In this document: positions 1 to 3,518 of the stretch, one piece after another
How positions within the stretch are numbered: position 1 is the stretch's first letter
Layout: each line of letters begins with the position of its first letter
Origin: a virus
Lineage: Duplodnaviria; Heunggongvirae; Uroviricota; Caudoviricetes
Length of the DNA: 3,518 nt
Virus record (IMG/VR): IMGVR_UViG_2585427758_000017
Span: 1-3,518 of that record
Direction: 5' to 3' (one strand)
The notes under the pieces: generated by a model
What the model was told of the DNA's origin: nothing
What the model saw: the letters and a program-made list of their open reading frames with translations, nothing else
Database searches by the model: none
Translations under genes and position numbers: made by a program

Positions 1-408
1 ATGATCACTATTACCAAAGGGCGACTGCTGACAATCAAGCAGTGGCGCGAAACATACGGACCGGGTAGCAACGTTGTACTGCCAGCAGAAGAAGCGGAAG
101 AACTGGCACGAATTGCACTGGTATCGCTGGAAGCAGAGCCGGTGGCAAAGATTATAGCTCATTACCCATTAGGAGTTGACGTAGGCAAACAAAAGTTCGT
201 ACAGGCCATTGGAGAGCTTCCTGACTTTGGCGGATATCTATTTGCCGCCCCTCCAGCGCCGATAGTGCCGGAAGAAGCAACTCCGGAAAACGTAGAAATG
301 CTCTCTGGCTATGTTTCCACGTACAAATTAACCGATAGCGAGCGCGATATTGCTGCCGAAATATGGAACGCCTGCCGCGCCGCTATGCTTCATGGGAAAG
401 GAGAGTGA
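1..408 (+). CDS. Hypothetical prophage accessory protein (135 aa), short paralogue of the 684..1427 gene
   Basis: ORF begins with ATG at base 1 and ends TGA 406..408. N-terminus MITITK matches MTTITK of the 684 gene, and both share an ELARIAL-SLEA-PV motif and a C-terminal module (PAPxVPEEATPENVEMLSGYVSTYKLTDSERDIAAEIWNACRAAML). No upstream sequence is available, so no RBS can be seen. Family not identified. Confidence 0.6.
   Translation: MITITKGRLLTIKQWRETYGPGSNVVLPAEEAEELARIALVSLEAEPVAKIIAHYPLGVDVGKQKFVQAIGELPDFGGYLFAAPPAPIVPEEATPENVEMLSGYVSTYKLTDSERDIAAEIWNACRAAMLHGKGE
247..392 (+). repeat. Copy A of a ~146-bp near-identical direct repeat (4 mismatches; 121-bp perfect core 263..383)
   Basis: Manual alignment at an offset of 671 bp: 247..392 against 918..1063. 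Mismatches are at 252, 262, 384 and 393. It encodes the shared C-terminal module of the two paralogues. Confidence 0.9.
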
Positions 409-683: not shown

Positions 684-1427
684 ATGACCACTATTACCAA
701 AGAACGTATTGAATTGTTCATTAAAAATCCGCTTGAAAACGGGCTTACCCGTGGTGAACAAATGGAACTGGCACGGATTGCGCTGGCATCGCTGGAAGCA
801 GATCCAGTTAAACGAGTTAACTCAGATCAGATGCGCCGAGTCTGCTTAGAAGCTAATCGCCATTTAGATAAATATGACGCGATGGCGAAAGAGGTAAATA
901 AGTTGCTTGGACGCATCGCCCCGCCAGCGCCGGTAGTGCCGGAAGAAGCAACTCCGGAAAACGTAGAAATGCTCTCTGGCTATGTTTCCACGTACAAATT
1001 AACCGATAGCGAGCGCGATATTGCTGCCGAAATATGGAACGCCTGCCGCGCCGCCATGCTTCAGTCCGGAAACTTTCGGGAAAACAAGAATTCGTCAACC
1101 AATAATTTTCGGGAAATCGCGGAAACGTCAACCAACTATCCGGCAATTCCTAGTGAGGTGTTGTCCGCAATCCTGAAGGTTGCCAGGATTCGTGCCGATT
1201 TCGATGATTTTGACGGTGACAGGCGAGGTATCGGTGATTGTCTGGATGAGGCTGAGCAAGAGCTTATCGTTACCATTAACAAATATGCCAGTCAGTTGGC
1301 AGCAGAACCTATAGCGCCTAATGACGTTCGAGAGCAGACAGCCATTCCACAAGTTCCGGTAACTCCGGATGGTTGGATAAGCTGTAGTGAGCGAATGCCG
1401 GACGACAGGCAGGAGGTGAATCAATGA
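684..1427 (+). CDS. Hypothetical modular prophage protein (247 aa): N-terminal module paralogous to the 1..408 gene, internal tandem repeat linker, C-terminal region ending in a DUF551-like WIS..R.P motif
   Basis: ATG 684 is preceded by an AAGGAG Shine-Dalgarno (672..677) with a 6-nt spacer. It shares the 146-bp near-identical segment with the first gene. The C-terminal residues WISCSERMPDD resemble, from memory, the start of DUF551 found in lambdoid accessory proteins; this is not verified. Confidence 0.7.
   Translation: MTTITKERIELFIKNPLENGLTRGEQMELARIALASLEADPVKRVNSDQMRRVCLEANRHLDKYDAMAKEVNKLLGRIAPPAPVVPEEATPENVEMLSGYVSTYKLTDSERDIAAEIWNACRAAMLQSGNFRENKNSSTNNFREIAETSTNYPAIPSEVLSAILKVARIRADFDDFDGDRRGIGDCLDEAEQELIVTINKYASQLAAEPIAPNDVREQTAIPQVPVTPDGWISCSERMPDDRQEVNQ
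918..1063 (+). repeat. Copy B of the ~146-bp near-identical direct repeat (perfect core 934..1054)
   Basis: Same alignment as copy A. Flanking sequence diverges immediately on both sides. Confidence 0.9.
1071..1136 (+). repeat. In-frame tandem duplication, 2 x 33 bp (25/33 identical), encoding NFRENKNSSTN / NFREIAETSTN
   Basis: 1071..1103 aligns to 1104..1136 with conserved TTTCGGGAAA and CGTCAACCAA cores. It starts 8 bp after the end of the 146-bp repeat, inside the 684..1427 CDS. Confidence 0.8.
1411..1416 (+). promoter_or_regulatory. Shine-Dalgarno AGGAGG for the candidate micropeptide
   Basis: Exact AGGAGG, 7 nt upstream of ATG 1424. It lies inside the 3' end of the upstream CDS. Confidence 0.5.
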
Positions 1428-1507
1428 GCTGGCCTGATGCAATCGTAACTCTGGGGGTGGTATTCGCAGCAGCGTTTGTTGTGTTCTCGATTTGTCGATG
1501 GGGATAA
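1424..1507 (+). CDS. Candidate 27-aa hydrophobic micropeptide (MSWPDAIVTLGVVFAAAFVVFSICRWG), putative single-pass membrane peptide
   Basis: ATG 1424 is preceded by a perfect AGGAGG (1411..1416) with a 7-nt spacer, the strongest SD in the window. The start overlaps the upstream stop as ATGA. It has a 17-residue uninterrupted hydrophobic core followed by CRWG, and its TAA stop (1505..1507) sits 4 nt before the next ATG. It is absent from the ORF track only because of its length. Confidence 0.35.
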   Translation: MSWPDAIVTLGVVFAAAFVVFSICRWG

Positions 1508-1511
1508 CCAC

Positions 1512-1754
1512 ATGTTCGCTTTGATTCAACGCGGTCAGATATACACGGACAGAGCCGGATACCCCGTGGTGATTACTCGCATCACTGAGCACTCAGTGTT
1601 CTTTCGACGGATGGACGGACGATCCGGGCGGGTACGCATTGGTGAGTTAAACTGCCTGTTCGAACATATTGACCACCAGGAGTACCGCAAAATTCTCGCG
1701 GACACTGAGCAGGAAAAGCACCTGAAAAAATTACGAGCCATAAAAAGGAAGTAA
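1512..1754 (+). CDS. Small hypothetical prophage protein (80 aa, MFALIQRGQIYTDRAGYPVVITRITEHSVFFRRMDGRSGRVRIGELN...)
   Basis: The ORF-track entry 1476..1754 starts at a TTG with no RBS. The in-frame ATG at 1512 follows a GGGGA purine tract (1499..1503) and directly follows the micropeptide stop, so it is preferred. Resembles small proteins commonly found just upstream of xis in enterobacterial prophages (possibly DUF4222-type, unverified). Confidence 0.6.
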   Translation: MFALIQRGQIYTDRAGYPVVITRITEHSVFFRRMDGRSGRVRIGELNCLFEHIDHQEYRKILADTEQEKHLKKLRAIKRK

Positions 1755-1757
1755 AGA

Positions 1758-1904
1758 ATGAATAAAGCATTTGAACGATGGGTCCACCAGCGTTACGGCA
1801 ATCGCTATGACCTGACGCGAGATGTTGACGGCTTCTACTGTCGTGAAGTTGTGAAGCGAATGTTTGAAGTGTGTTGCCACTGCCGTGGGCTGAGTGTTGT
1901 GTGA
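1758..1904 (+). CDS. Small Cys-rich hypothetical protein (48 aa, MNKAFERWVHQRYGNRYDLTRDVDGFYCREVVKRMFEVCCHCRGLSVV)
   Basis: ATG 1758 is preceded by an AAGGAAG Shine-Dalgarno (1745..1751) with a 6-nt spacer and lies 3 nt after the upstream stop. Its TGA stop (1902..1904) overlaps the xis SD. It carries a C28-x10-C39-C40-H41-C42 cluster. It is below the ORF-track length threshold. Confidence 0.45.
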   Translation: MNKAFERWVHQRYGNRYDLTRDVDGFYCREVVKRMFEVCCHCRGLSVV

Positions 1905-1912
1905 GGTAATAC

Positions 1913-2149
1913 ATGGGCAATGTGATTCAACTGGCTCCCAATGAATGGGTTTGTGAAAGCGTTCTTATCGCAATTACCGGGCTCAAACCAGGCACAATTC
2001 TTCGGGCCCGGAAAGAATGCTGGATGGTTGGAAGAGAGTATATTCACGTATCACCAGACGGTAATCCAAAGCCTTCCAGTGAATGTATGTATAACAGAAA
2101 AGCAATAGATGCCTGGGTCGCCTCAATGAAAAACAAACAACCCAGGTGA
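1913..2149 (+). CDS. xis: Excisionase / recombination directionality factor (78 aa)
   Basis: Small basic protein immediately upstream of and co-oriented with the integrase. The sequence MGNVIQLAPNEWVCESVLIAITGLKPGTILRARKECWMVGREYIHVSPDGNPKPSS matches, from memory, the excisionase-like family of E. coli Rac/e14-type prophages. GAGGT SD 1903..1907. Confidence 0.8.
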   Translation: MGNVIQLAPNEWVCESVLIAITGLKPGTILRARKECWMVGREYIHVSPDGNPKPSSECMYNRKAIDAWVASMKNKQPR

Positions 2150-2204: not shown

Positions 2205-3518
2205 ATGGATAAAGTCAAATATCCAACAGGCGTCGAAAACCACGGCGGCACATTACGCATCTGGTTTAATTTTAAAGGTAAACGTGTCAGGGAAAATCTT
2301 GGTGTCCCTGACACTGCCAAGAACAGGAAGATCGCCGGGGAACTGCGGACATCAGTATGTTTTGCCATCCGCACAGGAAGCTTTGATTATGCTGCACAGT
2401 TCCCTGACTCCCCCAACCTTCAGGCTTTTGGGGTAAGTAAAAAAGAAATTACGGTGAAGGAACTTGAAGAAAAGTGGCTGGATCTGAAACGAATGGAAAT
2501 CTCTGCAAATGCATTCAATCGCTATGAATCCGTTGCAAGAACGATGGTTCCGAAAATTGGAGGCAGTAGACTGGTGTCATCGGTAACCAAAGAGGAATTG
2601 CTGTATATCAGGAAAGATTTGCTTACCGGGTATCAGAATTCAACGAAAAACAAAGCAGCAGCAAAAGGACGGAGCGTCGTTACTGTAAATTATTACATGA
2701 CGACAATCGCTGGAATGTTTCAGTTTGCTGCAGATCACGGTTACTTAGAAGCAAATCCCTTCCAGGGAATTAAGCCTCTTAAAAGAGCCAGGGCAGAGCC
2801 AGATCCGCTAACTCGTGACGAATTTATTCGCCTGATAGATGCTTGCCGACATCAGCAGACGAAAAACCTGTGGTCATTGGCTGTGTACACAGGAATGCGT
2901 CACGGTGAACTGGTCTCCCTGGCCTGGGAAGATATCGATCTGAAGGCAGGAACAATTACCATCAGGCGCAATTATACGAAACTTGGTGAGTTCACTCTAC
3001 CGAAAACTGAAGCAAGCACAAACAGGGTTGTGCACCTTATCCAGCCCGCTATCAGTGTCCTGAAAAATCAGGCTGAAATGACAAGACTGGGTAAGCAGTA
3101 CAACATCAAGGTGCAACTACGTGAATATGGACGTTCAGTGAACCATGAATGTACTTTCGTGTTTAACCCTCAAGTGGTTAGAAAAAGCGAACAGGTAGGT
3201 TTTGTCTACAAAGTCGATTCTGTAGGTGACTCATGGGAAACAGCCATTAAGCGTGCAGGGATCAGGCATCGAAAGGCATACCAGTCACGACACACTTATG
3301 CGTGCTGGTCATTATCTGCCGGAGCAAACCCAAGCTTCATTGCCAGCCAGATGGGCCATGCAAGTGCCCAGATGGTATTCAATGTATACGGAGCATGGAT
3401 GACTGACAGCAATGCAGAACAGATCGCAATGCTGAATCAGAAGCTGACAGATTATGTCCCAATGATGCCCCATAGTCACCAAAGTGACACCAGAGGCTTA
3501 TTAAAATCAGTAAGTTAA
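2205..3518 (+). CDS. int: Tyrosine recombinase, lambdoid phage integrase with N-terminal arm-binding domain (437 aa)
   Basis: GGAGG SD 2195..2199 with a 5-nt spacer. The N-terminus (HGGTLRIWFNFKGKRVRENLG) is arm-binding-like. Catalytic residues can be placed: Arg I R232 (2898..2900, TGMRHGE), Lys K267 (3003..3005, LPKTEA), Arg II R362 (3288..3290, SRHTYACW), His H385 (MGHAS) and nucleophile Tyr Y395 (3387..3389, NVYGAW). Resembles Rac IntR-type integrases from memory. Confidence 0.95.
   Translation: MDKVKYPTGVENHGGTLRIWFNFKGKRVRENLGVPDTAKNRKIAGELRTSVCFAIRTGSFDYAAQFPDSPNLQAFGVSKKEITVKELEEKWLDLKRMEISANAFNRYESVARTMVPKIGGSRLVSSVTKEELLYIRKDLLTGYQNSTKNKAAAKGRSVVTVNYYMTTIAGMFQFAADHGYLEANPFQGIKPLKRARAEPDPLTRDEFIRLIDACRHQQTKNLWSLAVYTGMRHGELVSLAWEDIDLKAGTITIRRNYTKLGEFTLPKTEASTNRVVHLIQPAISVLKNQAEMTRLGKQYNIKVQLREYGRSVNHECTFVFNPQVVRKSEQVGFVYKVDSVGDSWETAIKRAGIRHRKAYQSRHTYACWSLSAGANPSFIASQMGHASAQMVFNVYGAWMTDSNAEQIAMLNQKLTDYVPMMPHSHQSDTRGLLKSVS

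Follow-up and report, generated by a model that had tools for sequence, protein, structure and literature searches.

A conserved 48-codon gene next to xis in lambdoid prophages: the cysteine cluster of its product is not a conserved metal-binding site

In phage lambda, the genes ea8.5 and orf55 lie between ea22 and xis (PMC8614690). [quoted passage not shown] The fold of lambda Ea8.5 is a hybrid of a zinc finger and a homeodomain, and its function is unresolved (PMC8614690). Small proteins of the early left arm are also encoded by the Rac prophage: YdaE (annotated as a ‘zinc-binding protein’) and RcbA, which in Rac of E. coli K-12 occupies the slot beside a DUF1233-type xis (xisR).

We analysed a stretch of 3518 nt (hereafter the window) that is the left arm of a lambdoid prophage; its positions 1400–2250 are 100% identical to the sequence of E. 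coli O104:H4 and other strains. Every gene of the window is located on the + strand, in the order Ea22-like, Ea22-like, a 27-aa ORF, DUF4222, a 48-aa ORF, xis and int (Table 1). The initial annotation, made from the sequence without database searches, had drawn attention to the 48-aa ORF as the possible gene of a metal-binding regulator or anti-host factor.

Table 1. Coordinates of the features found in the window, with the supporting matches or properties
Feature	Position	Strand	Evidence or property
Ea22-like gene 1	1–408	+	
Ea22-like gene 2	684–1427	+	
27-codon ORF	1424–1507	+	
DUF4222 gene, 80 aa (RgdR family)	1512–1754	+	PF13973, E 8.2e-14
Shine-Dalgarno AAGGAAG of the 48-aa gene	1745–1751	+	read directly
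48-aa CDS, WP_001030156.1, PHROG 3871	1758–1904	+	pI 8.9, basic two-helix product (predicted)
Codon 39, TGT (Cys), lineage-specific change from TGG (Trp)	1872–1874	+	W in 84/86 homologues
TGA of the 48-aa gene overlapping the xis Shine-Dalgarno TGAGGT	1902–1907	+	sequence
xis, 78-aa DUF1233-type excisionase	1913–2149	+	PF06806, E 9.5e-33; PHROG 539, E 5.1e-40
Tyrosine integrase, 437 aa	2205–3518	+	Arm-DNA-bind_2, 9.8e-24; Phage_integrase, 3.1e-18

The 48-aa ORF occupies the niche of the lambda exo-xis proteins (Orf55, Ea8.5, Orf63, Orf61, Orf60a and Orf73): within the early leftward operon it comes after the ea22-like genes (two in the window) and before xis, all being on one strand, and its product is likewise small. 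The kinship with the exo-xis class is one of position and size only, not of homology. For Orf55 the hhalign probability was 0.2%, and the alpha/beta fold predicted for Orf55 differs from the two-helix hairpin predicted for the 48-aa protein; for Orf63 the probability was 0.04%. The family PF20735, which lambda Ea8.5 itself matches at 1e-48, did not match the 48-aa protein; also, in contrast to the zinc-finger/homeodomain hybrid of Ea8.5, the 48-aa protein has no conserved metal site (see below). YdaE and RcbA resemble it as small prophage proteins of the early left arm but are not homologous to it (hhalign 4% to YdaE and 0.1% to RcbA). The statement of the initial annotation that small zinc-binding proteins in this position include known host-interference factors is, in view of the status of Ea8.5 and of the PF20735 and YdaE comparisons, an overstatement.

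The ORF starts with an ATG at 1758 and terminates with a TGA at 1902–1904; its product is MNKAFERWVHQRYGNRYDLTRDVDGFYCREVVKRMFEVCCHCRGLSVV. The motif AAGGAAG, separated from the ATG by 6 nt, is located within the final codons of the DUF4222 gene; the TAA stop of the latter (1752–1754) is followed by 3 nt (AGA) and then by the ATG of the 48-aa ORF. On the other side, the gap between the TGA and the xis ATG (at 1913) measures 8 nt (GGTAATAC). The sequence TGAGGT is positioned 5 nt before this ATG (its GAGG core, at 1903–1906, is 6 nt before it), and the overlap of the stop codon with the Shine-Dalgarno sequence of xis is a probable translational-coupling junction. AAGGAAG is conserved among the E. 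coli relatives; in other genera, the start of the 48-aa gene overlaps the upstream stop codon by 1 or 4 nt. The ORF, its AAGGAAG, the 3-nt and 8-nt spacings and the residues C28, C39, C40, H41 and C42, all present in the window protein, are as initially described, and the claim of a real cistron with its own ribosome-binding site immediately upstream of xis holds, the downstream gene matching both DUF1233 and PHROG 539 (Table 1).

We found no promoter-like site in positions 1300–2300, and the one terminator-like match in this interval (1583–1598, inside the DUF4222 gene) is at the chance level (mean of 0.8 in shuffled sequences). A search against Rfam matched no family, the RNA fold was no better than that of shuffled sequence (z = 0.33) and CII-box-like matches to TTGC-N6-TTGC occurred at chance level only. 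Since no promoter or terminator signal, Rfam family or RNA structure was detected, the 48-aa ORF is best described as an internal cistron of a polycistronic early operon.

The gene is not new: it is an already-annotated small phage gene. PGAP annotates the exact ORF in E. coli O104:H4 as WP_001030156.1, ‘hypothetical protein’, and in a sample of 30 rows across E. coli matches this label was carried by all 28 rows in which the greater part of the ORF is covered. In Stx phage BP-4795 the same gene is named ORF3, and in Salmonella phage Fels-1 it is STM0895.1n; the older records of phiP27 and VT1-Sakai leave it unannotated. The initial remark that the ORF had been missed is true of the ORF track then in use, but not of the PGAP annotation. 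The protein matches PHROG 3871 end to end (residues 1–48 against profile positions 1–48 of 48, E 7.5e-33) and agrees with the family, including the proteins of BP-4795 and Fels-1, in length, position and motif. The motif reads F5-E6...G14-x-R-Y-D-L-T-R-D...G25-x-Y27-x-R-E-V-V-K-R-M-F-E-x-W39; the window protein has every position except W39, which is C, and this W39C allele is the sole difference from the family.

Membership in PHROG 3871 gives the gene its name, not its action. Scans of the 48-aa protein against Pfam, NCBIfam and PADLOC gave no match, and a sequence-profile search of the PDB gave a chance match only (E 1.6). A profile search of 1.84 billion representative proteins produced 29 matches, all but two of them short (31–111 aa), none of which ties the PHROG 3871 family to a known domain. 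The other two matches were in long repetitive proteins (E 9e-6 and 9e-4); these matches are weak and were set aside as probably spurious. A partial match under the name ‘DUF4222 domain-containing protein’ (H116) proved to be a deletion remnant and pseudogene, not a fusion. In the deletion remnant of E. coli 2014C-4587 (L109, 1407–1544), a truncated DUF4222 pseudogene abuts codons 30–44 of the 48-aa gene just upstream of xisR. A literature search for ‘STM0895.1n’ found nothing, and searches on DUF4222, RgdR and exo-xis found papers on neighbouring genes, none on the 48-aa gene.

The DUF4222 gene upstream of the 48-aa ORF belongs to the same domain family as RgdR/ECs1581. RgdR contains a DUF4222 domain (PMC10877973); this prophage-encoded protein activates LEE type III secretion and represses motility in EHEC O157:H7 (PMC3378721).

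The window contains 48 ORFs of at least 25 aa, so that a 48-aa ORF alone proves nothing; it is conservation that lifts it above chance. Frame conservation in related prophages, a check proposed in the initial annotation, was complete: the frame is intact in 93 of 93 fetched loci carrying the gene (27 distinct CDSs). Could the ORF still be a chance one without product, or owe its conservation to a feature of the opposite strand? Many short ORFs do occur by chance in the window, and two reverse frames are open across the ORF there. Yet among the 27 distinct CDSs these reverse frames are open in only 21 and 19, while +1 is the only one of the six frames open in all 27. In pairwise comparisons of 12 diverged copies, dN/dS was 0.04–0.29 in every pair with estimable dS; the most distant pairs are saturated at synonymous sites, yet the protein is conserved. 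We therefore give this explanation a negligible probability; the 48-aa ORF is a genuine gene under purifying selection.

Homologues form 104 clusters, from Escherichia, Shigella, Salmonella, Klebsiella, Citrobacter, Enterobacter, Cronobacter and Pantoea. DNA of the gene is present in 899 of 5426 complete E. coli genomes (about one in six) and in 489 viral contigs, and a protein identical to that of the window is encoded in at least 1000 contigs. The carriers include Shiga-toxin phages BP-4795, VT1-Sakai and phiP27 as well as the O104:H4 outbreak lineage. Purifying selection together with carriage by one in six E. coli genomes argues that the gene does something useful for the phage.

We next consider the cysteine cluster, proposed to form a metal-binding knuckle C28...C39-C40-H41-C42. 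Column statistics were derived from 86 homologues of at least 44 aa. Position 39, C in the window, is W in 84 of the 86 (98%). Codon 39 of the window, TGT, is one base away from TGG; the L044-type allele has W, and the O104:H4 locus L001 differs from L044 by one non-synonymous difference. C39 is thus a lineage-specific replacement of a near-universal W, and the apparent ‘CCHC’ of the window is really WCHC. This W39C change at a near-invariant core position may impair the protein. The other positions are conserved to different degrees: C at 28 in 87%, C at 40 in 77% (R in 13%), H at 41 in 76% (Y in 13%) and C at 42 in 92%.

A zinc-knuckle regulator or anti-host factor using C28 and C39-C40-H41-C42 as ligands could draw on the four Cys and one His that the window allele has at these positions and on the fairly good conservation of C42 and C28. 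The set C28/C40/H41/C42 is retained together, however, in only 43 of the 86 clusters, and 13 clusters have at most two possible ligands (4 of these 13 have frameshifted C-termini). Intact WRYC alleles are abundant, e.g. in Salmonella cluster P0080 (476 contigs) and its cluster-mate P0147 (at least 1000 contigs); WRHC alleles are also intact and widespread. Three distant members from an exhaustive profile search have each lost three of the four positions: P0167 has A/K/L at 28/41/42, P0168 has V/R/D at 28/40/41 and P0171 has A/L/A at 28/41/42. In the Xenorhabdus copy L012 (YASEVVKRMFEVWREAKG) none of positions 28, 40, 41 and 42 is retained. Despite these Cys/His changes, the family retains F5, E6, G14, RY(D/S)L, D22, G25, Y27, E30, RM(F/Y) and W39. 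The Cys and His positions are, then, freely substituted among homologues, an outcome that the initial annotation had itself named as contradicting its proposal.

The spacing and the predicted structure lead to the same result. A retroviral-type CCHC zinc knuckle has the spacing C-X2-C-X4-H-X4-C. The window allele is like it only in having the letters C, C, H and C close together: its residues are spaced C-X10-C-C-H-C, the run opens with the C that is the lineage-specific mutation, the ligands are not conserved across homologues and the segment is predicted to be helical (residues 29–43), a geometry of neither knuckle nor ribbon type. No zinc-finger family of Pfam was matched at E up to 1. The cysteine cluster is not a conserved metal-binding site, and we regard the zinc-knuckle reading, which also lacks a YdaE or Ea8.5-family match, as highly improbable.

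AlphaFold2 with the family alignment predicts, for the monomer, helices at residues 2–13 and 29–43 joined by a 15-residue loop (mean pLDDT 81). The loop carries the near-invariant sequence G14-x-R-Y-D-L-T-R-D-x-x-G-x-Y27. By hydrophobic moment and helical wheel, the hydrophobic face of helix 2 consists of C28, V31, V32, M35, W39 and C42. The replacements among homologues agree with this arrangement: at position 42, C is replaced by A, L, V or F and at position 28 by S, A, F or Y, hydrophobic or small residues as expected of positions packed in a core; R is found in place of C40, and Y, E or K in place of H41, the spectrum expected of exposed positions. In the model, C28, W39 and C42 are predicted buried core residues of helix 2, and C40 and H41 are predicted to be exposed. 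Residues 39–42 are consecutive in one predicted helix and C28 directly precedes this helix, 11–14 residues away; such an arrangement would be unable to form a knuckle in the monomer. Structure prediction, which had been suggested as a check on metal-site geometry, thus gave a model without knuckle geometry. A Foldseek search with the model found nothing in the PDB at E ≤0.001 and only a 47-aa homologue in BFVD.

The composition of the protein raises a further possibility, that of a small nucleic-acid-binding regulator, a basic helical hairpin acting, perhaps as a dimer, on DNA or RNA. The pI is 8.9–9.0, there are nine Lys/Arg residues, R16, R29, K33 and R34 are near-invariant and R21 is present in 86% of homologues; as noted above, exo-xis neighbours include proposed transcription modulators. 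On the other hand, the Pfam, PDB profile and Foldseek searches gave no DNA-binding family or fold (helix-turn-helix, ribbon-helix-helix or another), and a 48-aa protein with a long loop would be an unusual DNA binder. The basic charge is equally compatible with a nucleic-acid target and with a protein partner. We consider the nucleic-acid reading quite unlikely.

The genomic settings of the family are more diverse than the window suggests. In the E. coli-type loci read, the DUF4222 gene is located 3 nt upstream in all but six (no upstream ORF is called in those six) and the DUF1233 xis is usually 8 nt downstream; outside E. coli-type loci the upstream neighbour is variable and is not DUF4222. 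The window shares its order, with the 48-aa gene directly before xis, with most other loci read, among them phiP27, Fels-1, BP-4795, Klebsiella prophages and CharmingMan. Still, the excisionase gene that follows belongs to any of five different families: PHROG 539/DUF1233 in the window, PHROG 2917 in L036, PHROG 629 (then a lambda-type integrase) in L009, the HTH_17/AlpA type in L005, L006 and L105, and the PrtN type in L008. Even among alleles that share at least 92% identity with the window protein, the accompanying xis gene differs. In L007 and L011, the 48-aa gene and xis are not adjacent, other genes being located between them.

Other members are found away from excisionase genes altogether. 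A second subfamily, with proteins ending in ...CHCKG-x-E-x, is located in the nin region after NinG, RusA or NinH and directly before a Q-like antiterminator gene (PHROG 753) or Pfam Q gene (L010, L102–L104, L106–L107 and L110). The third setting is found in Citrobacter phage vB_CfrS_K1M and a related phage of Salmonella, CF-SP1 (L111/L114 and L112): a 44-aa member is the last in a group of small genes adjoining tail genes, an arrangement that CF-SP1 shares in the local region read. No integrase, excisionase or repressor is annotated among the 96 features of vB_CfrS_K1M. With copies before Q in the nin region and a copy in vB_CfrS_K1M, co-occurrence with an excisionase-integrase module is not obligate, and the 48-aa gene is shown to be an independent module moving between accessory-gene regions.

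These settings bear on the main rival explanation, in which the protein is an excision accessory factor working with Xis and/or Int, e.g. by stabilising or modulating the recombination directionality factor. It would fit the position directly upstream of xis and the junction GTG TGA GGT..ATG, which is retained in L005, L006 and L008 even though the xis family changes. It would also fit a natural in-frame fusion of a 48-aa homologue to a DUF1233 excisionase beside an intact integrase (L098). Against it stand the pairing of these ≥92% identical alleles with unrelated excisionase families, which indicates no partner-specific co-evolution, a whole subfamily before Q, the intervening genes in L007 and L011, the member in vB_CfrS_K1M and the occurrence of the L098-type fusion on two contigs only. 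We judge the explanation unlikely.

The fusion itself (L098, 2962–3336, in a Logan contig of DRR526068) is located directly upstream of the integrase gene, and its 48-aa-type part is without Cys at 28, 40 and 42. It may be a hint of a functional link to Xis, or a one-off rearrangement. A broader proposal would make the family a ‘terminal-gene’ modulator, a small protein whose gene is placed directly before, and translationally coupled to, the regulatory gene that closes each early operon (xis in the left one, Q in the right one), and which would adjust when, or to what level, excision and the late switch occur; were it true, the L098 fusion would be the trace of a physical partnership. To us this proposal appears decidedly doubtful.

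The tight spacing on both sides, with the stop codon embedded in the xis Shine-Dalgarno sequence 8 nt from the ATG and the same junction in L005, L006 and L008, could also mean that the ORF is a leader delivering ribosomes to the xis start, the peptide itself being unimportant. Judged by these junctions, translational coupling to xis is likely. Coupling alone cannot explain the 48-aa gene, however, because the protein sequence is conserved: the dN/dS values are low and residues are invariant across genera. In addition, the family persists where no xis follows, and in Stx phages a gap of 18 nt, with no stop/Shine-Dalgarno overlap, separates the 44-aa variants from xis. A leader whose peptide is unimportant is therefore very unlikely.

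As a whole, the explanation that we favour, and consider probable, combines an early-operon cistron with a helical hairpin that would act as a stand-alone accessory protein on a shared, most likely host, partner. The gene belongs to the early leftward operon (exo-xis, pL-type) of the prophage; placed between the DUF4222 gene and xis, it would be transcribed together with these two genes and probably coupled to both in translation. The product, mildly basic and predicted to be a 48-aa helical hairpin, has cysteines that are not a conserved metal site, and is presumably made early after induction or infection. The invariant loop, together with the basic face that R29, K33 and R34 give to helix 2, would probably bind the partner, which would be common to all carriers. 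This partner is most likely a component of the Enterobacteriaceae host rather than Xis or Int, because the family adjoins five unrelated excisionase families and Q and occurs in a phage without annotated int or xis. In addition, the stop/Shine-Dalgarno overlap would make xis translation depend in part on ribosomes finishing the 48-aa ORF.

Two observations concern the upstream part of the window. The two tandem Ea22-like genes have a near-identical internal segment in common (PAPxVPEEATPENVEMLSGYVSTYKLTDSERDIAAEIWNACRAAML), and upstream of position ∼1400 the layout of the window differs from that of the O104:H4 locus L001, where a single ‘phage protein’ is present; together, the shared segment and the difference in layout point to recombination among ea22 alleles. 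The 27-codon ORF that follows encodes MSWPDAIVTLGVVFAAAFVVFSICRWG, with a hydrophobic core that by eye resembles a single membrane helix, and its start overlaps the stop codon of the Ea22-like gene (ATGA). The RefSeq O104:H4 record is without this ORF (gap between CDS 2270–3028 and CDS 3113–3355 in L001). The ORF is kept in >70 fetched loci, with diverged variants including MNWPEAFTAVGVAIAVAFILYSLFRWG and MSWPDAFFGAACVFAMAAMVLAIIFWG; it is a better candidate than the 48-aa ORF for a truly missed small gene.

The main value of the analysis is a correction: the apparent metal-binding cluster stems from one allele (W39C) and is not a trait of the family. No result points to a new kind of mechanism. 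Temperate enterobacterial phages have many conserved small genes, of which the 48-aa gene is one; the partner of its product, once found, would add to the poorly understood exo-xis and nin accessory sets.
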